Of a stretch of DNA of 64,000 nucleotides, positions 13,351 to 53,048 are shown piece after piece (the first letter of the stretch is position 1; each line of letters starts with the position of its first letter). Source of the DNA: Candidatus Babeliales bacterium (GTDB lineage Bacteria; Babelota; Babeliae; Babelales; JANWKD01); NCBI GenBank assembly GCA_963722075.1, contig CAVRJM010000001.1, forward strand, positions 544,001-608,000, read 5' to 3'. The position numbers and the translations under genes are program-made. The notes beneath the pieces were generated by a model. That model saw only the letters and a program-made list of their open reading frames with translations, did not search any database and had not been told where the DNA came from.

Positions 13351-13384
13351 AATAATATATATATAAAACTTTATGGAGATTTTC

Positions 13385-15793
13385 ATGAATTATAGGTATT
13401 TTATTCTTCTTTTTACCTTCATTGGGCTTTCTTATTCTGTCATTTTTCCAGGCCGCTTTAATATCTACCTAAAAAATAATACTAGAATGCGTGCTTTATT
13501 TTCATCTCGGAATAGCCTTATTTCTAGCAGCGTTTTCCGTAATTCGTTATTGAAGAAAATAAAACCTTCCTTAAAGAAATTTGATTATCTAAAACGTTTT
13601 TTTACTATAGGTGTGGGATTCGCAGGATATTCCTTAGCAACCTTACCTTACATCGATACATCTCATATAAAGATTTCATTGGAACAATTTAAAAAAGAAT
13701 TAGAAAACCCGCACCGCGTTGCGCACATCATATTATATGATGAAGATCTTTACGAACAATATATTGAATTTATTAATGTTAATTTTTACGAATTAATAAC
13801 CAGTCGCCAAAGAGTCAATATTTTTAAGGTGCTTGACCTTCTTATTAAGAATGACAAAGATAATATTAATTATTTTTATGAATCAATTAAAACTAATTTT
13901 AACCATATAGTGGAAACCAAATCTGGGTTATCTTTTCTGCAAAATATTATTGAAAGTCGTTTAACATTAATTGATCGTGGGTCATACAATAAAGGCAAAA
14001 AAACATATTTTTCAACGTATGATAATGATGCCATTATTAATGATTTAGTAGAATTATGTTTTGAACCTAAAAGCGCTTTATATAGATCAATGGAAGGTAT
14101 AAGGATCTTGTGGGATTTCTTATTAATTGAAGGAGAAATCTCAAACAAAGCCGGTAAACTAATTTTTATGAAACTCAATAGGTTTAATGATTATTGCTTT
14201 CCCTATCTGGATAGATTACCCCTTGATTACTTAAAGGAAACAGTTACTCATCATGAGCTAAAAGAAATTGTTAATGGATTATTAATAAATACACCACGGG
14301 TCTCATGGTTAGCCCAAATTTTATGGGTGATTAAGCATATCAATGAAGAAACACCAGTTTTAATCAAAGAAATGTTTCTCGAATCCATAAAAAAATCTAT
14401 TCCGATGCCCTATTTAACAGAGGGATGTATTGATCGGCTACTTAAGCCTAATGACCAAAGTGTTTTAATTCCTCTTCTTATGGATAACATTGCGCTCGCA
14501 GCTCAATCACCAGGACTAGCAAATTTAATTACTAGTCACCTAAAAAATAATCCTCAATTAGCATCTCAGTTTTGCAAAACAATAATTAACTTTTGGAATA
14601 AAATAGAAGATTTCCCCTATGCCTTTAAGCTTGCTCAACACTGCATAATTCATGATACAACCACCATTCCATTTTTTATTTCACAGATTAAACCTTCCTC
14701 CAATCTTCAATATCTAGAAGTTGTTTGCATAAATGCTTCCGGTAATAAGGATTTAAAAAACAAATTAGAAGAAGTAATGGAGTCGAATAGTCTTAATAAT
14801 TTTGAAAAAATCGCACGACTTATTAGTTATAGTTATTACTGTACCCATGATTCACACTCATTACTTTCCAAAATTCCTTCGGGTCCAACCAAAAGACATC
14901 TTATTCAAAATAAACATTTGTTTTTAAGCAGCCAAGTGCTTTCTTTTTATTCAAATAACAAAGAACTCAGCGCATTTGCTAATGCTATAATGACATATGA
15001 GGGATTATTACAAAATAATTATTATACGTTTGTACATGGCCAAAAAAGTTGTTATTTATTACCGGAACTTCTTTACACCTTCCTTAATAAAATTAAATAT
15101 GATACCCATACTCATCAGGATTTTATCTATTTACACGTTAAAAAATTAAATAACGATCTGAAAAGTGAAAAACAATTACGCAAATCTATTTTAAAAAATG
15201 GAAGGGGCTTAAGTAATCATCCTTTCCTCTTGTTCACCAATTACACTTTATTTGGTAATGAAATGCATGGAGGGGAAAATACAGCGAAGTATATTGCAGT
15301 CAATGCTAATCAAACTGATGTAGAATTAAATTTTGATGAAATTTTTTATAATCATGATTTACCTCATGATATTTATAATAAATATAAAGCTCGTTTAGAG
15401 CATCTTCAACGAGAATATTTACAATTGACTCCCTATGGCACCTGTATTCTAATTGCAATTCCAAAAGTCACCGCACATAAACATGTTTATTTAACACTGC
15501 CAGAGGGATATAAAAATAGCCTTGAATTTAAAAATGGCATTACAACTAATGACATGCAACTTTTTATGAAAAAATTGGAAAAGTCGCCAGAACTTATTAA
15601 AAACACTGATGAACTTATATTTTGCATCCCCATGACTACCGATAAAAATGGCGGCTTAAACCCAGAAAGCGGTATCAAAGTTTTTCCTTTTAGCGCAGCT
15701 AATCCATCAGCTTTAGATGCCTGGTACGCACAAGTACATGCGCTATTTGATGAAATATCGGAGGATATTAAAAATCATGGCCACAACAATTAA
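13385..15793 (+). CDS. Exported effector-like protein, paralog 1 (putative ADP-ribosyltransferase-like C-terminal domain)
   Basis: GGAG RBS before MNYRYF; signal peptide, basic Ser-rich segment, short TM; C-terminal YYTFVHGQ..LLFTN..FCIPMTTDKNGGLNPESGIK shared with two downstream genes. Confidence 0.85.
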   Translation: MNYRYFILLFTFIGLSYSVIFPGRFNIYLKNNTRMRALFSSRNSLISSSVFRNSLLKKIKPSLKKFDYLKRFFTIGVGFAGYSLATLPYIDTSHIKISLEQFKKELENPHRVAHIILYDEDLYEQYIEFINVNFYELITSRQRVNIFKVLDLLIKNDKDNINYFYESIKTNFNHIVETKSGLSFLQNIIESRLTLIDRGSYNKGKKTYFSTYDNDAIINDLVELCFEPKSALYRSMEGIRILWDFLLIEGEISNKAGKLIFMKLNRFNDYCFPYLDRLPLDYLKETVTHHELKEIVNGLLINTPRVSWLAQILWVIKHINEETPVLIKEMFLESIKKSIPMPYLTEGCIDRLLKPNDQSVLIPLLMDNIALAAQSPGLANLITSHLKNNPQLASQFCKTIINFWNKIEDFPYAFKLAQHCIIHDTTTIPFFISQIKPSSNLQYLEVVCINASGNKDLKNKLEEVMESNSLNNFEKIARLISYSYYCTHDSHSLLSKIPSGPTKRHLIQNKHLFLSSQVLSFYSNNKELSAFANAIMTYEGLLQNNYYTFVHGQKSCYLLPELLYTFLNKIKYDTHTHQDFIYLHVKKLNNDLKSEKQLRKSILKNGRGLSNHPFLLFTNYTLFGNEMHGGENTAKYIAVNANQTDVELNFDEIFYNHDLPHDIYNKYKARLEHLQREYLQLTPYGTCILIAIPKVTAHKHVYLTLPEGYKNSLEFKNGITTNDMQLFMKKLEKSPELIKNTDELIFCIPMTTDKNGGLNPESGIKVFPFSAANPSALDAWYAQVHALFDEISEDIKNHGHNN

Positions 15794-15932
15794 TATTATT
15801 ACTTCTGGTAGCTCATCAATACATGAGATGAAATGATTTCTGCTTGTCAATAATTAAGCAACTGCCAGCAATATTTAATTGACTATTACTTAATTACTGG
15901 TAAAATAAAAAATAGATATTATGGAGGTTTTC

Positions 15933-17963
15933 ATGAATTATAGGTATTTTATTCTTCTTTTTACCCTTATTGGGCTTACTTATTCCGTCACTTTTCCTGG
16001 CCGTTTTAGCACCTATCTAAAACATAATGCTACCAAAATGCGCGCTTTATTTTCATCTGGGATTAGTTCCAGTTCTTCCGGTATTTTCAATAAGAAAAAG
16101 TTGTTTGAAAAATTAGCAGAAACAAAGTATTTTTTTTCATCTAAAAAATCTGATTATATTAAACCTTTTTTTACTCTGGGTATGGGAATAACGGGATACA
16201 CTATTGCAACATCACCCACTTCTACCGATTCTCATAAAAAAATTTCATTGGGACAATTAAAAATGGAATTAAATAATACTGATCAGGTTACACAAACAAT
16301 ATTATACGATGAAGTTCTTTATAAAGAATATATTGATCTTATTAATACGCATTTCTATGAATTAATAACCAGCGAACAAAGAAATAATCTTTTTACAGTA
16401 ATCACTAATCTAATCCACAACGATAGGGATAATATTGATTATTTCCTTACCTCAATAATAACAAATTTAAAATATATAATAGATGATTACCCAAGCCCCG
16501 GGATAACTTTTATACACAATATTTTTAAAAGTCGTTTATCATGGTTTGATTATTTTTTATTTATAATAGGTAGGCTCCCCCCTGACTTAAAATTAAAATA
16601 TGATAATGATAAAGTTTGTAAAGATCTAGTCGATGCTTTTGAAAATTTATTCACTAGTCTTGTAGATAATATTGCTATTACTGCTCATTCCGCCCCTCAA
16701 TTGCTTGGACTGATTACGCCGCTAATAGCTGATTTAGTCCCTCATTTTTGTGAGCAAGTAGTGCTTCATTGGAATCAGATACAAGAATCGCCTATTTCAT
16801 ATAAGCTTGCTGAATACTGTATTCTTCATGACCCATCTACTATTTCATTTTTCAGTACGCAGATCAAACCAACCTCCTCTATTCAATTTATAGAAGTGGT
16901 CAACAGATACGCACCTTGTGATAAAAATATAAAAAAATCATTAAAACAACTAGCAAAAGACGATTATGCCCATGATTTTGAAAAAATTGCACGATTACTC
17001 AGCTATAATGCTTATTGTACTAAGGACTCCTGCTCATTAATTTCTAAAATTAATTCCAGCTCAACCAAAAATCATCTTACTGAAAATCCAAGCACCTTAT
17101 CTAAAAGCCCTGTACTGAGCGCTTATGCAAATAATAAAGAATTAAGTGCATTAGCAAATACAATAATGTCATATGAGCAATCTCTGCAAAATAACTATTA
17201 CACCTTCGTACATGGCCAAAAGAGTTGTTATTTATTACCCGAATTATTAAACACTCATTTCTATAAGATTAGGAATAATGATAATGACCAGCATAACTTT
17301 ATCTATTTACATGTTAAGGAATTAAATAAAAGCACAAAGGCTGAAAAACAATTACGTAAGTCAATTTTAAAAAATGGCAGAGGGCGTAACAATAGGCCTT
17401 ATCTTTTATTTGCCAATCGGGCTCTTTTTGGTAATGAAACAAATCCAGGATCAAATACAGCAGGATATATTTTAGAAAATGATAATGTAGGCAATGTACA
17501 ATTACGCTTTGAAGAGATTTTTAAAAACCATCATTTATCTGAAAATTTTTATAACAAATATAAAACACGTTTAGAGCATCTACAGCAAGAATATTCGCAG
17601 CTTACTCCGTATGGCACTTGTATGCTCATTGCAATTCCAAAAGAAACCATTCATAAACATGTTTATTTAGCAATTCCAGGCGGTTATAAAAAGGCTATTA
17701 CATTGAAATCTGGCACTTCTATTCATGATATTAGGGACATCATGGCAATAGTTCAAAAAGCACCCGAGCTCATCATTGATACTGATCAACTTGAATTCTG
17801 CATACCCATGACTACTGATAAAAATGGGGGCTTAAACCCGGAAAGCGGTATTAAAATATTTCCATTCAGCGCTGCCAACACCAGCGCCTTAGATGCATGG
17901 TACGCTCAAGTGCATGCATTATTTGATGAGATAAAGAAGGATATTGAACAACATGCTCAATAA
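15933..17963 (+). CDS. Exported effector-like protein, paralog 2
   Basis: Near-identical N-terminus to paralog 1; lacks part of the central helical region; same C-terminal domain with QLE motif. Confidence 0.85.
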   Translation: MNYRYFILLFTLIGLTYSVTFPGRFSTYLKHNATKMRALFSSGISSSSSGIFNKKKLFEKLAETKYFFSSKKSDYIKPFFTLGMGITGYTIATSPTSTDSHKKISLGQLKMELNNTDQVTQTILYDEVLYKEYIDLINTHFYELITSEQRNNLFTVITNLIHNDRDNIDYFLTSIITNLKYIIDDYPSPGITFIHNIFKSRLSWFDYFLFIIGRLPPDLKLKYDNDKVCKDLVDAFENLFTSLVDNIAITAHSAPQLLGLITPLIADLVPHFCEQVVLHWNQIQESPISYKLAEYCILHDPSTISFFSTQIKPTSSIQFIEVVNRYAPCDKNIKKSLKQLAKDDYAHDFEKIARLLSYNAYCTKDSCSLISKINSSSTKNHLTENPSTLSKSPVLSAYANNKELSALANTIMSYEQSLQNNYYTFVHGQKSCYLLPELLNTHFYKIRNNDNDQHNFIYLHVKELNKSTKAEKQLRKSILKNGRGRNNRPYLLFANRALFGNETNPGSNTAGYILENDNVGNVQLRFEEIFKNHHLSENFYNKYKTRLEHLQQEYSQLTPYGTCMLIAIPKETIHKHVYLAIPGGYKKAITLKSGTSIHDIRDIMAIVQKAPELIIDTDQLEFCIPMTTDKNGGLNPESGIKIFPFSAANTSALDAWYAQVHALFDEIKKDIEQHAQ

Positions 17964-19998
17964 AAAATTAATAATTTTATTACTTATTATTTCTTGTGGT
18001 TCATCATTACCTGCGATGAATTATTTTCATTGGGCTAAAAAGAAGCTAACACCGCGATCACTTTTTTCGTTAGTTTATAAACACGAGAACTATGGGTTCA
18101 AGGGAAATCAAATTACTCCTAGAAGGTCATTTTTCAATTACGCAAGAACCCCATTAAGTCGTTTTTATCAAAGAGATACCTTATTATCCAAAACATTTTT
18201 CACTATAGGTACTGCTCTGGGGTTAGGGATATATAAGCATGCATATGCAGTGGATGAAAGACCCTTAGGTTGTGAACCTGTAACAGGTTCTAATTATGCA
18301 TGGCATCCTCTTATTCCGGAAGATATCCCGATAACTTTAGACAATTTTATAAAGTATCTTGAATCTTTAGACAACAAAAGCTTTGCTGATGAAGCAACAA
18401 GAAATAATGACATCCAAACCCAATATGAATCGCTCATTGGTAACAATTTTAAAGAATTGCTTACGGGCAACCATCGTCAAAAATTTTTATTATTTCTTAA
18501 ATACTTTATTCAAAAAAGTAATGAAAAAAATCTACTACAAAAGATAGCGCTCCATCTAGAAGATCTTTTATCAGATTACGAAGGGCATTGTGTAATAGAT
18601 AATGCATTTATACCTTCTGATTACCAGTCAGTAACTTATTTTTTACCATACTTATTTGATAACTTAGCACTCTGTGCACAAACAGAAAAATTAATGTATT
18701 TAATACGAGAAAGTTATTACTTTTTCGGTCAATTATCCCATACCTATAAATCAATGGGATATTCACCGGATATCCATCAATTACTGCAAAGCCTTCCTAG
18801 GCGATTAAAAGAACAATGGAACTCGGTACATACGAAACCTTATGCATATTTATTATTACAAAATGCTATTTCATTAGAACCTTCTTTACTCGACTTTTTT
18901 TTACAAAATATTGATTACACTACACATTTTAAGGTAATAAAATCATTGAATAAGTTAGCCCCTTGTAATATACATCTTAAAAATAATTTGATTAATCATA
19001 CTGAAAATGATCAAATAATCGATTTTCCTTTACTTATGAAGTTATTAGCCTATAGCAGCAGCTGCCCAAACGATAATGCGCTGTTGAATCGTTTACCTAA
19101 AACTATGACGGTCAAACATTTAAATCAAAATAAACATATGGTTAACAGTCTTATTGTTCCCAACTATATTGATAATACTGAATTAACTAGAATGGTGAAT
19201 GCCATTATTGCTCAAGAGAACACATTAAAAGAGAATTATTATACATTTATACATGGGCAACGAAGTAGTTATTTACTTGCTGAGCATCTTTATACGTTTT
19301 TAAAGCAACAACATTCAAATGATAATCCGGAATTCCTCTACTTACATGTTAATAAAGAAGTTAATGATAAAAAAACCGAAAAGAAATTACGAAAATATTT
19401 GCTTGCTAATGGTAGAAATAATGATGAAGATAGACAACGAATTCTGTTTGTAAATTATGCCTTATTTGCTAACGACACAAATTCCGGGTCAAACTCTGCT
19501 CATTATATCATACAAAACCATAACGTAGGCGCTATATCCATATCATTTGAAGAAATTTTTAAAAATAACAATATTGAACATTTATATTTTAAGTATCAAA
19601 GCCGTTTGAGACAATTGTATAACGAATATAAATCACTTAACCAATATGGTACCTGTATTTTAATTGCTGTACCAAAATCAACCATTCATAAACATCTCTA
19701 TACGGCTGTATCTGGCGGCGGTAAGCGTGCAGTAGATATTAAAGGACATGGTTATACTTATGATATCCGATTAATCTTGAAAACAATTGAAGAATCTCCT
19801 GAGCTTATTAAAGATACTGATCAATTAGAATTTTGTATCCCCATGACAACCGATAAAAATGGCGGATTAAACCCTGAAAGCGGTATTAAGATTTTTCCTT
19901 TTAGCGCTGCTAATCCAAGTGCTTTAGATGCCTGGTATGCACAAGTACATGCATTATTTGATGAAATACAAAAAGATATACAAAGCAATGCCCAATGA
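17953..19998 (+). CDS. Exported effector-like protein, paralog 3
   Basis: Signal peptide ending SLPA then Met; Arg-rich segment; FFTIGTALGLGIY; YYTFIHGQ..ILFVN..QLEFCIPMTTDKNGG. Confidence 0.85.
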   Translation: MLNKKLIILLLIISCGSSLPAMNYFHWAKKKLTPRSLFSLVYKHENYGFKGNQITPRRSFFNYARTPLSRFYQRDTLLSKTFFTIGTALGLGIYKHAYAVDERPLGCEPVTGSNYAWHPLIPEDIPITLDNFIKYLESLDNKSFADEATRNNDIQTQYESLIGNNFKELLTGNHRQKFLLFLKYFIQKSNEKNLLQKIALHLEDLLSDYEGHCVIDNAFIPSDYQSVTYFLPYLFDNLALCAQTEKLMYLIRESYYFFGQLSHTYKSMGYSPDIHQLLQSLPRRLKEQWNSVHTKPYAYLLLQNAISLEPSLLDFFLQNIDYTTHFKVIKSLNKLAPCNIHLKNNLINHTENDQIIDFPLLMKLLAYSSSCPNDNALLNRLPKTMTVKHLNQNKHMVNSLIVPNYIDNTELTRMVNAIIAQENTLKENYYTFIHGQRSSYLLAEHLYTFLKQQHSNDNPEFLYLHVNKEVNDKKTEKKLRKYLLANGRNNDEDRQRILFVNYALFANDTNSGSNSAHYIIQNHNVGAISISFEEIFKNNNIEHLYFKYQSRLRQLYNEYKSLNQYGTCILIAVPKSTIHKHLYTAVSGGGKRAVDIKGHGYTYDIRLILKTIEESPELIKDTDQLEFCIPMTTDKNGGLNPESGIKIFPFSAANPSALDAWYAQVHALFDEIQKDIQSNAQ

Positions 19999-20103: not shown

Positions 20104-20718
20104 ATGATTAAAATAAAAAAACTTATTTTTTTACTATTGCTTATAAATACATCTCACCTCAATTCGATGCACATAAGTGATTTGTGGCAAGAATCTGCTT
20201 CTGCAAAAAAGATTTTTGCTTTATCAGTAGCTTCTATACTTGGTTATAATATGCTTCATAGATTCATAAGCTATCACCTCAGCCCATTTTATATTAAGAA
20301 TAAAACGGTAATTCAGAACTTAAGCAATGTTGAGGCAGCAATCGAAGGCTTCCAAGATGCATCGCGACCAAGTCTGCTTATCGGCGCCCTTATAGTCGGT
20401 GCTTCACGCATAGGTTCTCTGCCTAAACTAGAATGGGCTGATTTAATTAAACCCGGCCTTGCTACGCTAGGAATTATAACAGTATTTTCCTTATTTGATG
20501 GCTATCGAAAAGCACTATATTACGATCATGAAGAAATGGTTAATGGAAGGACTGGAAAGATGAAGACATCGCTCATCAATAAGGGGCCCGAACAATCTAA
20601 GAGATTCGTTGCGTCTGCTTTTGCTAATGACTCGAAGCAATTTTGGGGAACCATAGCGGCTATAGGATTACCTCTTGGCTTTATTACTATGCGTTATATG
20701 AAAAGTAGGAATGCTTAA
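20104..20718 (+). CDS. Exported multi-TM hypothetical protein
   Basis: Signal peptide ending HLNS then Met; several hydrophobic segments. Confidence 0.75.
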   Translation: MIKIKKLIFLLLLINTSHLNSMHISDLWQESASAKKIFALSVASILGYNMLHRFISYHLSPFYIKNKTVIQNLSNVEAAIEGFQDASRPSLLIGALIVGASRIGSLPKLEWADLIKPGLATLGIITVFSLFDGYRKALYYDHEEMVNGRTGKMKTSLINKGPEQSKRFVASAFANDSKQFWGTIAAIGLPLGFITMRYMKSRNA

Positions 20719-24653: not shown

Positions 24654-25619
24654 ATGAATAAAAGAATTATATTGTTACTTACCACTTTTTTCAGTGCCCC
24701 AGTTTTTGGGCTTTCTGATTGTAGTAAAACTACTCAAGAATTGATAACTAAGGCAACTCCGGCACGTATGCAACAAGTTATTGATTCATATAAAAATGCC
24801 GTTTTTGGCATGGGGAATGATTCACTCATAAAAGCTGGCTATGATGAAAAAGCATTTGAGACCTGGGAAGATCTTTTAGAATGTGCTCATGAATGGATTA
24901 AAGAACAAGTCAACCAAAAAAAATCACCTGCTCATTATAAAACAGCTATTACTAATTTAAGAATGGTTAACGAATTTCTTAAAATTAAAATACCGCAACT
25001 CAAAACAAAATATGCTTTAATCATTGAAAAAAAGAATAAGAAAACAGGAACCATTGATATTGATGCTAATAAATTAAAGATATTCTCTTCTATCGATGTA
25101 GCACAATTAGCTGACCTTGAAAAAAATTTAGAAAAATATAGCGGCCTTGCTAATACTATTAATGCTACCGCACTTAGTACCATTTTAAACAATACACCGG
25201 TCCCAACTTCATGGACCGGCAATATAGAAAAAAATCCCGCTAAAATATTACCCAATTATCAAACGTTTTTCAAAAGTTATAGTAATATAAAAACAGCTCT
25301 TAATCATGACCCGGATAAATTTCTTTACTTTTTACAAACACAAAACATCCCGCTTCATGACTCAATTGATGCTGCGATTGTTATGGAACAAATGGAGCAA
25401 TTTATTTTTATTAAGAAAAATGCAAAAGAAGCGCAAGAAGTTTTAAATCGCATACGAGAAATATACCCGAAAATTTTAAGTAATAAAGAAGTTGGGCAAT
25501 TAGTTGCCACACAGGATAAAGCTTCAATGATTATTTATAGTGAAGCAGAAGTATTGGCACTTATTTGTGATCGATTACTGCAAGAAGTTCACCAACTTGT
25601 TCAGGCAATGAAGAAGTAA
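24654..25619 (+). CDS. Exported hypothetical protein (paralog of next gene)
   Basis: Signal peptide; TPVPTSW..PNYQTFFKSYS motif. Confidence 0.8.
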   Translation: MNKRIILLLTTFFSAPVFGLSDCSKTTQELITKATPARMQQVIDSYKNAVFGMGNDSLIKAGYDEKAFETWEDLLECAHEWIKEQVNQKKSPAHYKTAITNLRMVNEFLKIKIPQLKTKYALIIEKKNKKTGTIDIDANKLKIFSSIDVAQLADLEKNLEKYSGLANTINATALSTILNNTPVPTSWTGNIEKNPAKILPNYQTFFKSYSNIKTALNHDPDKFLYFLQTQNIPLHDSIDAAIVMEQMEQFIFIKKNAKEAQEVLNRIREIYPKILSNKEVGQLVATQDKASMIIYSEAEVLALICDRLLQEVHQLVQAMKK

Positions 25620-25629
25620 TGGTGATTTT

Positions 25630-26535
25630 ATGAAAAGATTATTAATTTTATTATTATTTACCGCCATCTTTGGTCAAAGTTACTCCGTTGCTCCCTTTGG
25701 CTCTTGTAGTAAAGATATTTATGCAGGAACCCTTAAACAAAATGCTGAAGATCTTATTAGACGGCTGAATACCGAATCTGTTCGCACATTTGCGGTAGAT
25801 TCATATATTAATGAAGAAATTAATAAAATAAAATTTATTAGTTGGGTAAATTCACTTGCCTGTTATTACGAACTCGCACAAAACACCAAAAAAAATAATC
25901 AATACATGTTATATATTCTTACTCGTTATTACACCATTGCCACAGCAATTTATAGCGCAGCAAACGCAATTTACAAAAAAAATACACTCAAATTAGAAGA
26001 AAAAAACAATCTCAAAAAAACATTGGAAACTATAGACACCGAGCTTAAATCCTATAGTTTGGAAACTTATGAGATTCTTAGACAGACGGAACTACCATCC
26101 GCATGGAAAAAAACAGTCCCTAAGAAATTAGAAGAAGCTTTTCCCAATTATGGAACTTTCTTCAAAAGCTATTCACTCGGTAAAGAATCAGTCAATAAAT
26201 CTTTTTCAAATGTTGAGTTTGAAGCTTTTTTAAAAATAAATGGGATATCAATTACTAAACATGGCCTTGAAGACCTTTTAAATCAACTTGAAAAGTTTAT
26301 TTATCGTTTAAAAGAAACTTGGTTTAAAAATGAAGTCCAACTCGCGCTTATTAAGGAAGCTGAAGAAATTGAAAAACGTATCATAACTCAATATTCAAAC
26401 TTTAGCTTTATTACCGGATCATTTCGCCAGCAAATAAGCAAAAGTTCTGATAAAATCAATTTAATAATATTCTTTATTGCTGATATTTATAGAGGAATAA
26501 TTCAAAAATTATTAAAAAATATTAATAGTTTATAA
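25630..26535 (+). CDS. Exported hypothetical protein (paralog of previous gene)
   Basis: Signal peptide; TELPSAW..PNYGTFFKSYS motif. Confidence 0.8.
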   Translation: MKRLLILLLFTAIFGQSYSVAPFGSCSKDIYAGTLKQNAEDLIRRLNTESVRTFAVDSYINEEINKIKFISWVNSLACYYELAQNTKKNNQYMLYILTRYYTIATAIYSAANAIYKKNTLKLEEKNNLKKTLETIDTELKSYSLETYEILRQTELPSAWKKTVPKKLEEAFPNYGTFFKSYSLGKESVNKSFSNVEFEAFLKINGISITKHGLEDLLNQLEKFIYRLKETWFKNEVQLALIKEAEEIEKRIITQYSNFSFITGSFRQQISKSSDKINLIIFFIADIYRGIIQKLLKNINSL

Positions 26536-49379: not shown

Positions 49380-52300
49380 ATGAAACACAGATCAAAACTC
49401 TTACTCTTTATTTTTCTTTCATTTTATTTTCCCCTCTTTACTATGCAAAATAAGCCCGACAAAGATTTGTACTTAAGCCAATTACAAACGCAGGTAAAAC
49501 CGGCATTTGGCTTGGACAGATTATATGAACCTGGGTTTATCAGCCCCAAAAAAGAATTAAAAGATAAAAAAAAGCAAGAAGATCCGTCTCAACTTGATCT
49601 TCTTGAAAGTAACCCTTTCCAGAGTTTAGGATACCAAAACAAAGCAGTTGGCGAGACCTTAGAACTTTTTGAAAATTTCAGCGACGGAGTCTCATCACAT
49701 AATGAATCGTCTTTTGATGCCTTTATTAGCGGGCTAGCACAGGTAAGTGCAAATATTGTTATTACTGGAGCAATAGGCTACTACGCAAGCGCAGCGCTTG
49801 GGGCATGCTCAGAAGCCAAATATCTTAAAGAAAAATTTGATGAATTAGATAGTAATAATGTCTCTAGCCCGGCTGCAAATGTTCTAAGCGTTATGCAGAC
49901 TGGTTGCACCGTTCAAGAAAATTTTGATAATATTGGAATAATTCTTCAAGCAGCAGAAAAACTCGATCAACAAAAAAGAAAAGTTATTAAATCGCATGAA
50001 AAAAAGCTCATGCAGTTTGCAACACTCATAAGAGAAGGCATTAAAAATTCATCCTATGATCTTCACCAAAGCTATTATGGCGGCTTGACCTATCCTGTAT
50101 ATACACAACATCAAAGAGAAAAAATCTCTAACATCCCAGAATTTGATCTAGAAAAATCTCACCAAGAATATTGGGCTCAGCATGAACGAGGTCTACGACG
50201 ATTCCAAGAAGAAAAAAAAGCTGCAAAACAAAAACCACAAAAAACCACTGCCAATAAAAGTAGTAATAGCAATAGCATAGCAGCAACCGACACCACGCAG
50301 GCTCGTGAAGAGCGTGCTAAAATTTTTGTAGAACAACAAAAAAAATTAGACACATTGCTCAAAGAATTCAAGTCAGAAATGGAATATCAAGAAGCAATGA
50401 GCACCATTGCCGGTGGATTTAACGGAGTTGCTGCAATAGCTTCTATTTTTGGAAACAAGAAAGAAGCGTATGCTATTGCAACATTCGCTACAGCCGGCAT
50501 TCAGGCTGTTGATAGTATGCGCACTATTGCGCAAGCAGGTTTAACAGGAGCAGGCATTCATCCCTATGTCGGCATACTTATGTCAGTTGCAAGCATGGTT
50601 AGTCTCTTTCAAGAAGATGATGCTCAAGATGGCACACAAGCAATTCTTGATGCAATTGCACACGGCATTATGCATTTATCACAACAAATACATCAATTTC
50701 AAGAAGAAGTGCGCGAACAGTTTGCAGAAGTGCATAAAAAATTGGACAAACATCATTTGATCGTGCTTGAAAAATTCTTTGCGCTACATCAAGATCAAGA
50801 GAATATTCTTCAGCATTTAAAAGATCTTCACACTTATATAGCAGATAATCACAGAGCGATTCAAAGTGGCATTGATGCATTGCATGCACGCGTTGATACC
50901 AATTTCAGAATGACTCTTGATAACTTGAATGGTTTTCGCATAGAAAATATCGATAAATTAAGAGAACGTTCATTGCTCATTTTAAAGCGTACTGATGTTT
51001 CACCGGAAGAATTTAGCAGATGCTTAGATGAACTTTATATTGAAGGAACAAGCGGAGCATCAGCCGATGCATTAACGGGCGGATCAGTTGATATTCATTC
51101 CCCTGCTGCAATTCAAACGGTACTTGAAAGATCATCTTCACTGCATAATATTTTTGAACATCCGGCATTTGCCAACATCAATTTACTCAGTAGATTTCTT
51201 TACCATGAAAAACTCGTAAACCCCTTAATTTGGATTAAATGTGTGGATACGATTATGCAAATGCTTGATCAAAAACTTAAGCCTGATGAAGAATATCCAC
51301 CAACAGAAAACATGAAAGATTTGGATATTAAAAAATTGCTGCTTCTCAAAAAGCATGGTAAAAAAGTACGCGCATTTATAAAAAGAGTTGGCCAAAAAAA
51401 ATATCTAGAACATATGGCGCAAACCTATGAGCAAGGATTACAAGAACTTTCAGAAGCAGTTCAGCATGTGCAAACAAATTTTGAAGAAAAAGAAACGCAA
51501 TTGCTGCGCAGAGAACATACTGCTTTTTTTGAAGCAGAAAGATCAAAAACACAAAGAATTGCAAGTTCGTATGAATGTAAAAAATGCGTTGAACATGTTA
51601 CATACTTTACTCAACCGACAAATAGATATAAGATACTGTACCAACGATCCGATCCTTTCTGGTTATATTATCGAGAACAAAAAGACCCCCCACATTCCCG
51701 GCGTGCTCCGCCTCTTTTACCAGAATGCAATGAAGTTCATATGTTAAGCACCGGCGAAAAGAAACCTACTGATGTTTTAAATCCAACCGAAAAACTTAAA
51801 CAAATTTGCCAAGAACATACACACTTTATGGAAGCGCAAAAGGATTTGTTACTTAGATCAATAGCATTGGATCTTACGCACAATGCTTGTAATGCGATAG
51901 GTAATGGAAGAAGTCAATGGTTATATCCTGAAAATGACGCTACTACTATTCCAATTCTTCTGTTGCCAAAACAAAATCTTCCTCTTAATTCCATCTATAT
52001 TACTGCCGAAAATAAAGGAAAGGGGACGATAACGCATGAATATACTACCACAGGAAATGTCTTTCATTTACAGTCGTATTTTACGATTAAGCACAATAAT
52101 CAAAAAGTAAAAATTTTAGATATGTTTAAGCCATATACTTCAGAGCAAGAATACTCTTCAATTGAAAACATACTTCATTATTGGTATGGAGGTCGTTTTG
52201 CAAAAGCTCCTGATCTCTTTAAAATACAACGAAATAATATGACGTCTTGGCACTTCTTTCCTTTTCCTCCCATAACCCCCTATCCAGCCGAACGCGATAC

Positions 52301-53048
52301 CTTCGTAAGCACCGCACAAAGAGGCCCTGATCAAGCAAATCAATTTTTACCGTTAATTCAGCAGTTGATTGAAGAAGATCAACAAGAAAAAAGACTGCAA
52401 TTTAATCAAGAAATAATGACGCACATGAGTTGCAAATCACCAACTTCAGAAGTGTACAAGGCTGCTCAAAAAGTTGATGTTTGCTTTAAAATCCTCGATG
52501 CCCTTTTAACGCTTATGTACCATGATCTTATGAGCGAAGATCAACGTTCAGATCATCCTGAGCTTTTTGCAATAACAAGTGATGATGATAAGCACTACCT
52601 GAAAAATGGTACTGCACTAACACGTTATCTCCAAAATTATTCTTCAAAAATTAATCAGGAACACAAACAAGGTGATTATTTACCCTGTTATATTCGCTAT
52701 ACAACCGATAAACTGATGCATGCAGTTCAAGAAATTAATAATGCGAGGTATCGACCTCAATTTAAGGCAGTAACGCAAGTTATTGATAATATTAATCTTC
52801 TTGTTCGTAACTATAGAGATATTAGGCCAAGAGAAATAGCACCAAAACCGACTTCTGAAGAATCTAAATTATTGGCAATTATTTTGAGACAAAATGAGGA
52901 AAAAGATAAAAAAATTGACGAACTTATGGAACATAACAGAGAACTCGCAGCAGAGACAAAAGCACTCAGAGAAGAAGTTGCGGGTGTGAAAGAACAATTG
53001 CAACAAATGATGGCGGCCTTGTTACTAGAAATGAAAAAGGGCGTATGA
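49380..53048 (+). CDS. Large exported protein with hydrophobic helices and coiled coils (toxin/translocator-like)
   Basis: Signal peptide + Met; Ala/Gly-rich hydrophobic stretch at about aa 340-410 followed by long heptad region; C-terminal coiled coil. Confidence 0.8.
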   Translation: MKHRSKLLLFIFLSFYFPLFTMQNKPDKDLYLSQLQTQVKPAFGLDRLYEPGFISPKKELKDKKKQEDPSQLDLLESNPFQSLGYQNKAVGETLELFENFSDGVSSHNESSFDAFISGLAQVSANIVITGAIGYYASAALGACSEAKYLKEKFDELDSNNVSSPAANVLSVMQTGCTVQENFDNIGIILQAAEKLDQQKRKVIKSHEKKLMQFATLIREGIKNSSYDLHQSYYGGLTYPVYTQHQREKISNIPEFDLEKSHQEYWAQHERGLRRFQEEKKAAKQKPQKTTANKSSNSNSIAATDTTQAREERAKIFVEQQKKLDTLLKEFKSEMEYQEAMSTIAGGFNGVAAIASIFGNKKEAYAIATFATAGIQAVDSMRTIAQAGLTGAGIHPYVGILMSVASMVSLFQEDDAQDGTQAILDAIAHGIMHLSQQIHQFQEEVREQFAEVHKKLDKHHLIVLEKFFALHQDQENILQHLKDLHTYIADNHRAIQSGIDALHARVDTNFRMTLDNLNGFRIENIDKLRERSLLILKRTDVSPEEFSRCLDELYIEGTSGASADALTGGSVDIHSPAAIQTVLERSSSLHNIFEHPAFANINLLSRFLYHEKLVNPLIWIKCVDTIMQMLDQKLKPDEEYPPTENMKDLDIKKLLLLKKHGKKVRAFIKRVGQKKYLEHMAQTYEQGLQELSEAVQHVQTNFEEKETQLLRREHTAFFEAERSKTQRIASSYECKKCVEHVTYFTQPTNRYKILYQRSDPFWLYYREQKDPPHSRRAPPLLPECNEVHMLSTGEKKPTDVLNPTEKLKQICQEHTHFMEAQKDLLLRSIALDLTHNACNAIGNGRSQWLYPENDATTIPILLLPKQNLPLNSIYITAENKGKGTITHEYTTTGNVFHLQSYFTIKHNNQKVKILDMFKPYTSEQEYSSIENILHYWYGGRFAKAPDLFKIQRNNMTSWHFFPFPPITPYPAERDTFVSTAQRGPDQANQFLPLIQQLIEEDQQEKRLQFNQEIMTHMSCKSPTSEVYKAAQKVDVCFKILDALLTLMYHDLMSEDQRSDHPELFAITSDDDKHYLKNGTALTRYLQNYSSKINQEHKQGDYLPCYIRYTTDKLMHAVQEINNARYRPQFKAVTQVIDNINLLVRNYRDIRPREIAPKPTSEESKLLAIILRQNEEKDKKIDELMEHNRELAAETKALREEVAGVKEQLQQMMAALLLEMKKGV

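Follow-up and report, generated by a model that had tools for sequence, protein, structure and literature searches.

A large Babelota protein family with a predicted ADP-ribosyltransferase fold and presequence-like leaders

Babelota are described as a phylum of protist parasites with many secreted, mostly unannotated proteins (PMC6561590, PMC4378268), and all cultured members are reported to infect protists (PMC12172432). One isolate, Chromulinavorax, is described as replicating wrapped in an expanded host mitochondrion and shedding outer-membrane vesicles (PMC6561590). Ceg3 of Legionella (Lpg0080), a Dot/Icm substrate, is portrayed as a mono-ADP-ribosyltransferase that modifies ADP/ATP translocases at mitochondria and whose E-x-E motif aligns with SdeA, ExoS and CtxA (PMC8820735), and Ats-1 of Anaplasma as a type IV effector that has a cleavable N-terminal mitochondrial presequence and is not an ADP-ribosyltransferase (ART) (PMC2824752). 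Here we describe three tandem genes in a 64,000-nucleotide stretch (hereafter the window; positions 544,001 to 608,000 of contig CAVRJM010000001.1), which belong to a new, large, Babelota-wide family with a predicted ART fold. Named relatives of the family come from Dependentiae/Babeliales, and we accordingly treat the source bacterium, whose genome of 1.47 Mb is 99% complete, as a Babelota parasite of protists.

The shared C-terminal domain and its active site

The three genes lie in tandem on the + strand at 13373-15793 (paralog 1, 806 aa), 15921-17963 (paralog 2, 680 aa) and 17944-19998 (paralog 3, 684 aa from TTG or 681 aa from the ATG at 17953), and their products have the same predicted architecture of signal peptide, presequence-like leader, transmembrane segment, helical middle region and ART-fold domain. 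The motif order pointed out in a preliminary description of this DNA is present in all three: YYTF(V/I)HGQ, followed by LLFTN, LLFAN or ILFVN and then by TDELIFCIP in paralog 1 or TDQLEFCIP in paralogs 2 and 3. These motifs are not a matter of chance, because the C-terminal domains are 57-61% identical to that of paralog 3 (E <= 1e-89) and the His and Asn are conserved over 280 family domains. The last 46 codons are near-invariant among the paralogs, with 14-25 differences per 138 nt, and because most of these fall at third positions (10/14, 20/25 and 22/23) the pattern points to purifying selection rather than recent duplication.

Used as a single query, the C-terminal domain finds matches in 90 of 261 genomes of the phylum, and a 37-sequence profile finds them in 120, including 89 of the 189 high-quality ones, with frequent tandem arrays; the profile search returned 1,675 clusters (50% identity, E <= 0.001). 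No match that would explain the domain was found in Pfam, PHROGs, PADLOC or PDB sequences, and none of 37 family members compared with Pfam has a match there. A published description of the family was not found in the mostly open-access literature covered, supplements excluded; it may figure among the expanded families tabulated in PMC4378268. Eighty regions from the top matches of both genome searches were combined with database proteins into 290 non-redundant proteins, of which 280 near-complete domains were analyzed and 10 partial ones left out; residues are numbered as in paralog 3 unless another paralog is named. A well-supported clade comprises 65 short, mostly Gln-type members that have no solenoid-length N-terminus and nearly always no leader. 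The source genome encodes two further close and two distant paralogs elsewhere, the distant ones being short, leaderless and Gln-type (C1:928133-929401(+), C3:9927-10124(-)). Fusions of the domain with an EEP-family domain, with a dual-specificity phosphatase and with WD40 or ankyrin domains occur in other members (P0168, P0169, P0068, P0070, P0191).

The predicted fold of the domain (paralog 3, 19237-19983(+)) contains the six-strand split β-sheet of the ART superfamily (b4-b5-b2 / b1-b3-b6; strands at residues 432-439, 500-504, 570-577, 586-588, 629-633 and 649-653), and its long structural matches are to ART proteins only. The ART fold that had been suspected from the motifs is therefore very probably correct, and an NAD-consuming activity is likely. 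His437 is kept in 277 of the 280 domains, Asn504 in 274, Ser/Thr518 in 270 and Tyr/Phe521 in 266, whereas at the strand-5 position 629 there are 160 domains with Glu, 86 with Gln and 34 with another residue; the strand-1 His-Gly and late Glu anticipated earlier are thus part of the conserved core. In paralog 3 these residues are His437 (19252; bracketed nucleotide positions are codon starts), Asn504 (19453), Ser516 (19489), Ser518-x-x-Tyr521 (19504) and Glu629 (19828), and in paralog 2, by its own numbering, His431 (17211), Asn499 (17415), Tyr516 (17466) and Glu625 (17793). Two couplings identified by covariation, G438-I522 and S516-E629, tie the neighborhood of the strand-1 His and the strand-5 Glu to segment 516-522. 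Strand 2 usually reads F-x-N or S-x-N. We infer that F502-x-N504 corresponds to the Y-F-A strand of PARPs and S518-x-x-Y521 to the helix with the nicotinamide-stacking Tyr, motifs described in PMC7955679.

The finer class comparisons drawn in the preliminary description are not supported. The H-Y-E triad of PARPs and diphtheria toxin is rejected, since strand 1 nearly always lacks H-x-[ST] (position 439, after His-Gly, is Q in 191 domains, R in 41 and T in 4) and position 502 is Phe in 186, Ser in 52 and Tyr in only 9. The R-S-E class of toxins with an ARTT loop is likewise rejected: strand 1 has His, and (Q/E)-x-E is not conserved, so that the Q-x-E seen in paralogs 2 and 3 is incidental (two positions before the strand-5 Glu, Gln in 28 and Glu in 13 of the 160 Glu-type domains).

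Paralog 1 (domain at 15011-15784(+)) has Ile749 (15617, ATA) on strand 5 and retains His555 (15035), Asn623 (15239) and Thr637-x-x-Tyr640 (15290); at the position equivalent to 516 it has Glu635 (15275). S516-E629 is the fourth strongest coupling among family domains, and position 516 is acidic in 5 of 160 Glu629-type domains versus 58 of 120 others (4/159 versus 24/64 outside the large Gln clade). The tree yields 36 disjoint pairs with a difference at 629: in 11 of them only the non-Glu member has the 516 acid, in none does only the Glu member have it, and 25 are ties (sign test, p 0.001). This is the top score among all alignment columns. Since the Glu635/Ile749 state of paralog 1 is the swap seen in these independent pairs, its catalytic acid appears to have relocated, and the protein is probably not a dead enzyme. 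The earlier suggestion that paralog 1 is inactive or altered can accordingly be split: alteration on strand 5 is plain, and inactivity is weakened by the retained core and the Glu at 516, as well as by the H-Y-I PARPs, which are described as active mono-ARTs (PMC8946771 Table 1; PMC7955679). Neither of the two acids is present in 62 of the 280 domains, so that some members may lack activity or use another mechanism.

N-terminal leaders and the helical middle region

By a heuristic, 231 of 278 family members with a closed 5' end start with a signal peptide, in line with the exported-effector role proposed in the preliminary description. A frequent layout behind it is a Met after the predicted cut, a stretch rich in Arg, Ser, Ala and Thr that is free of acids, and often a Gly/Ala-rich hydrophobic helix. 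The heuristic prediction for paralog 1 comprises an acid-free leader rich in Arg, Lys and Ser (aa ~26-74) and a Gly/Ala-rich hydrophobic segment (aa ~75-89) at 13448-13639(+); the corresponding predictions are aa ~26-81 and ~82-96 in paralog 2 (15996-16208(+)) and aa ~25-80 and ~81-95 in paralog 3 (18016-18228(+)).

A leader was called when the first 40 mature residues had at most one D/E, at least two R and at least five R+K, a filter that was set after the sequences had been seen and applied to relatives that are not independent. Of the Glu-type members 45 of 129 passed it, of the Gln-type 6 of 74 and of the others 10 of 28, all three window paralogs among them, compared with only 10 of the source genome's 538 signal-bearing proteins (heuristic; 1043 proteins in total), three of which are these paralogs. 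With the family removed from the control, 7 of 530 exported proteins passed; in the family the figures are 54 of 134 for long members and 7 of 97 for short ones, a contrast that holds across 27 threshold sets. Amphipathicity of the 61 leaders is confined to the helical angle; their motifs resembling sites of the mitochondrial processing peptidase (MPP) exceed those of shuffles (24 versus 11.0, 15 versus 5.1 and, more weakly, 15 versus 8.6), and they contain 213 R to 163 K, versus 667 to 1682 in controls, an Arg bias that is partly built into the filter. Leaders are scattered across many clades (34 parsimony changes). As a set, the family therefore shows the Arg-rich, acid-free, amphipathic character and MPP-type motifs of presequences, and we consider it rather likely that the leader is a mitochondrial address by which the paralogs are imported into host mitochondria.

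Beside the family, four unrelated proteins of the genome (916, 402, 753 and 407 aa; C1:1337561-1340311, 1340327-1341535, 245095-247356 and 1021735-1022958, all on the - strand) have a signal peptide and a presequence-like leader, one with a transmembrane segment, one with a weak DnaJ and one with a weak ankyrin match; leaders on unrelated proteins suggest a general mitochondrial route. In 259 of the 538 signal-bearing proteins, a count that has no chance baseline, a Met lies close to the predicted cut, as though the mature protein imitated a eukaryotic N-terminus. A related genome has a tandem array of five family genes whose products show very clear presequence-like leaders (L084, G121:C1:749600-764700).

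In the model of paralog 3, to which this observation is confined, the leader region is modeled with low confidence and is mostly unstructured (predicted local distance difference test, pLDDT, < 50 across 1-118) and the middle region (aa ~118-398; 18295-19137(+)) forms a curved solenoid of tri-helical repeats resembling Pumilio. Canonical PUF repeats are 36 aa long and read RNA through a set pattern of residues after the repeat Gly. The repeats here are 35 aa long and do not keep that pattern: over 76 repeat instances, G+1 is mostly I, L, R or F, G+2 is variable and G+5 is E or K, so that the canonical RNA-reading residues are absent. Leader, solenoid and family breadth all go beyond the preliminary description.

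Proposed mechanism, alternatives and genomic context

As the most likely reading, we propose that the paralogs are exported effectors that are imported into protist host mitochondria, where the solenoid picks a host target for NAD+-dependent mono-ADP-ribosylation, a scenario whose chances we judge to be evenly balanced. Export would likely proceed via Sec and a type II-like system, and removal of the signal peptide during Sec export would uncover the leader and hydrophobic helix for routing via the host import machinery. A transmembrane segment placed after a presequence leads to anchoring in the inner membrane, outside the matrix; the hydrophobic helix would thus hold the enzyme facing the intermembrane space. 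Substrate choice would fall to the solenoid and NAD+ binding to His437, Asn504 and the Ser-x-x-Tyr helix, while Glu629 (paralogs 2 and 3) or the relocated Glu635 (paralog 1) would act as the catalytic acid, roles assigned from fold, conservation and covariation. That all of this holds jointly, with a dedicated effector set whose Sec signal uncovers a presequence, with a new ART class (His, F/S-x-Asn, mobile Glu) as its largest cargo, common to Babelota and giant viruses and marked by repeated moves of the acid between strand 5 and the neighboring loop, and with a causal role in the mitochondrial takeover by Chromulinavorax, is a tentative and rather doubtful extension.

Among the alternatives, the one that survives best retains this delivery and changes the acceptor: the solenoid would bind mitochondrial RNA or DNA, and a DarT-like domain would ADP-ribosylate it in the matrix. 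It is unlikely, given the hydrophobic G+1 and variable G+2 at the PUF reading positions, the lack of profile similarity to DarT (hhalign of 69 family domains against 19 DarT sequences, probability 0.2%), and the transmembrane segment behind the leader in all three paralogs, which would keep them from the matrix. Somewhat less probable still is a domain that is mainly an NAD+ glycohydrolase, draining or reshaping host NAD+ pools and modifying no macromolecule. The strand-5 Gln is shared with TNT-type NADases, and the short Gln-type clade fits such a role, but paralogs 2 and 3 are Glu-type with a large helical middle region, and the exchange of WD40, ankyrin and solenoid modules among family members suggests target selection. 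NAD+ depletion would also reduce the ATP supply that the parasite is described as importing (PMC6561590).

Equally improbable in our estimate is an active ART-fold effector at a non-mitochondrial site, its basic leader and helix tethering it to the surface of the bacterium, to the vacuole or to some other host membrane, although three points favor it and weigh against mitochondrial import: the individual presequence features of the window copies are weak (composition agrees, amphipathicity is not individually significant; paralog 1 z -0.9), about 60% of long members have no such leader at the main threshold, and a type II system exports folded proteins, in conflict with import. Against it stand the Arg-over-Lys bias, helical amphipathicity and MPP-like motifs, which are mitochondrial traits. 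A non-catalytic domain, either another α/β fold with a superficially similar strand order or a dead NAD-binding scaffold, is very improbable in view of the near-invariant polar residues at the expected cleft positions across 280 divergent domains, the compensatory relocation of the Glu and the long structural matches to ARTs alone.

Two macrodomain proteins and one NADAR protein are encoded in the genome, unlinked to the paralogs (C1:1243263-1243988(-), 422573-423454(+) and 313431-314687(+)). Each starts like a signal peptide (heuristic), as about half of the genome's proteins do, so that their reading as possible exported ADP-ribose erasers is suggestive only. The fourth paralog (C1:1165279-1167249) lies 5 kb from PilM and GspD-like secretin genes (C1:1155656-1160265, +). 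In the window, the tandem genes are preceded by a transporter-like gene and followed by a gene for a 204-aa protein, glycosyltransferase-like and nucleoside-transporter-like genes and a release factor, the transporter and release-factor names being our presumption; across 93 family loci (flanks mostly 1-4 kb) no neighbor family is common to more than four. Unannotated, probably exported proteins of 204, 321, 301 and 1222 aa with no Pfam match above the cut-off are encoded at window positions 20104-20718(+), 24654-26535(+) and 49380-53048(+).

Relationship to known systems

The strongest structural matches of the domain are uncharacterized giant-virus proteins in BFVD, A0A481Z173 of Mimivirus LCMiAC02 (E 1.4e-9, TM-score 0.57) and A0A1V0SG32 of Hokovirus HKV1 (E 2.1e-6, TM-score 0.56); they are probably of the same family, a hint that protist parasites have exchanged the domain. 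No relative turned up in two pattern scans of IMG/VR. From the DNA ADP-ribosyltransferases DarT/DarT1 (PF14487; PDB 7omv, 7yk3, 8baq) the paralogs differ in being exported, multi-domain and paralog-expanded, with large helical insertions; PF14487 matches none of the 261 phylum genomes, while the model does score in E. coli E2348/69, and no DarG macrodomain or NADAR antitoxin lies beside family genes within those flanks at the 93 loci. Compared with the H-Y-[EDQ] clade (diphtheria toxin, exotoxin A, PARP catalytic domains), the family has H-G-Q instead of H-x-[ST], F/S-x-N on strand 2, an acid position that is E, Q or moved to 516, and no Pfam match.

Pumilio/PUF domains (Puf4, PUF-3, FBF-2; Pfam CPL, PUF_NOP9) share the solenoid shape and differ in repeat length and RNA-reading residues. 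Ceg3 resembles the proposed effectors as an ART of an intracellular parasite acting at host mitochondria, but its description sets it apart, members of the family being of the His type and having a Sec signal ahead of a presequence-like leader; Ats-1 is similar in its mitochondrial presequence, which in the paralogs has its counterpart behind a Sec signal peptide. The family thus has the structural features of the ART superfamily, to which it adds at least 1,675 clusters, and falls outside the PARP/diphtheria toxin, R-S-E and DarT families by their defining features. Its active-site variant, with a strand-2 Asn and a relocating Glu, would be called inactive by standard motif rules, and it offers an enzyme class, a candidate delivery route and defined residues for the question of how a Babelota isolate rebuilds its host's mitochondrion.
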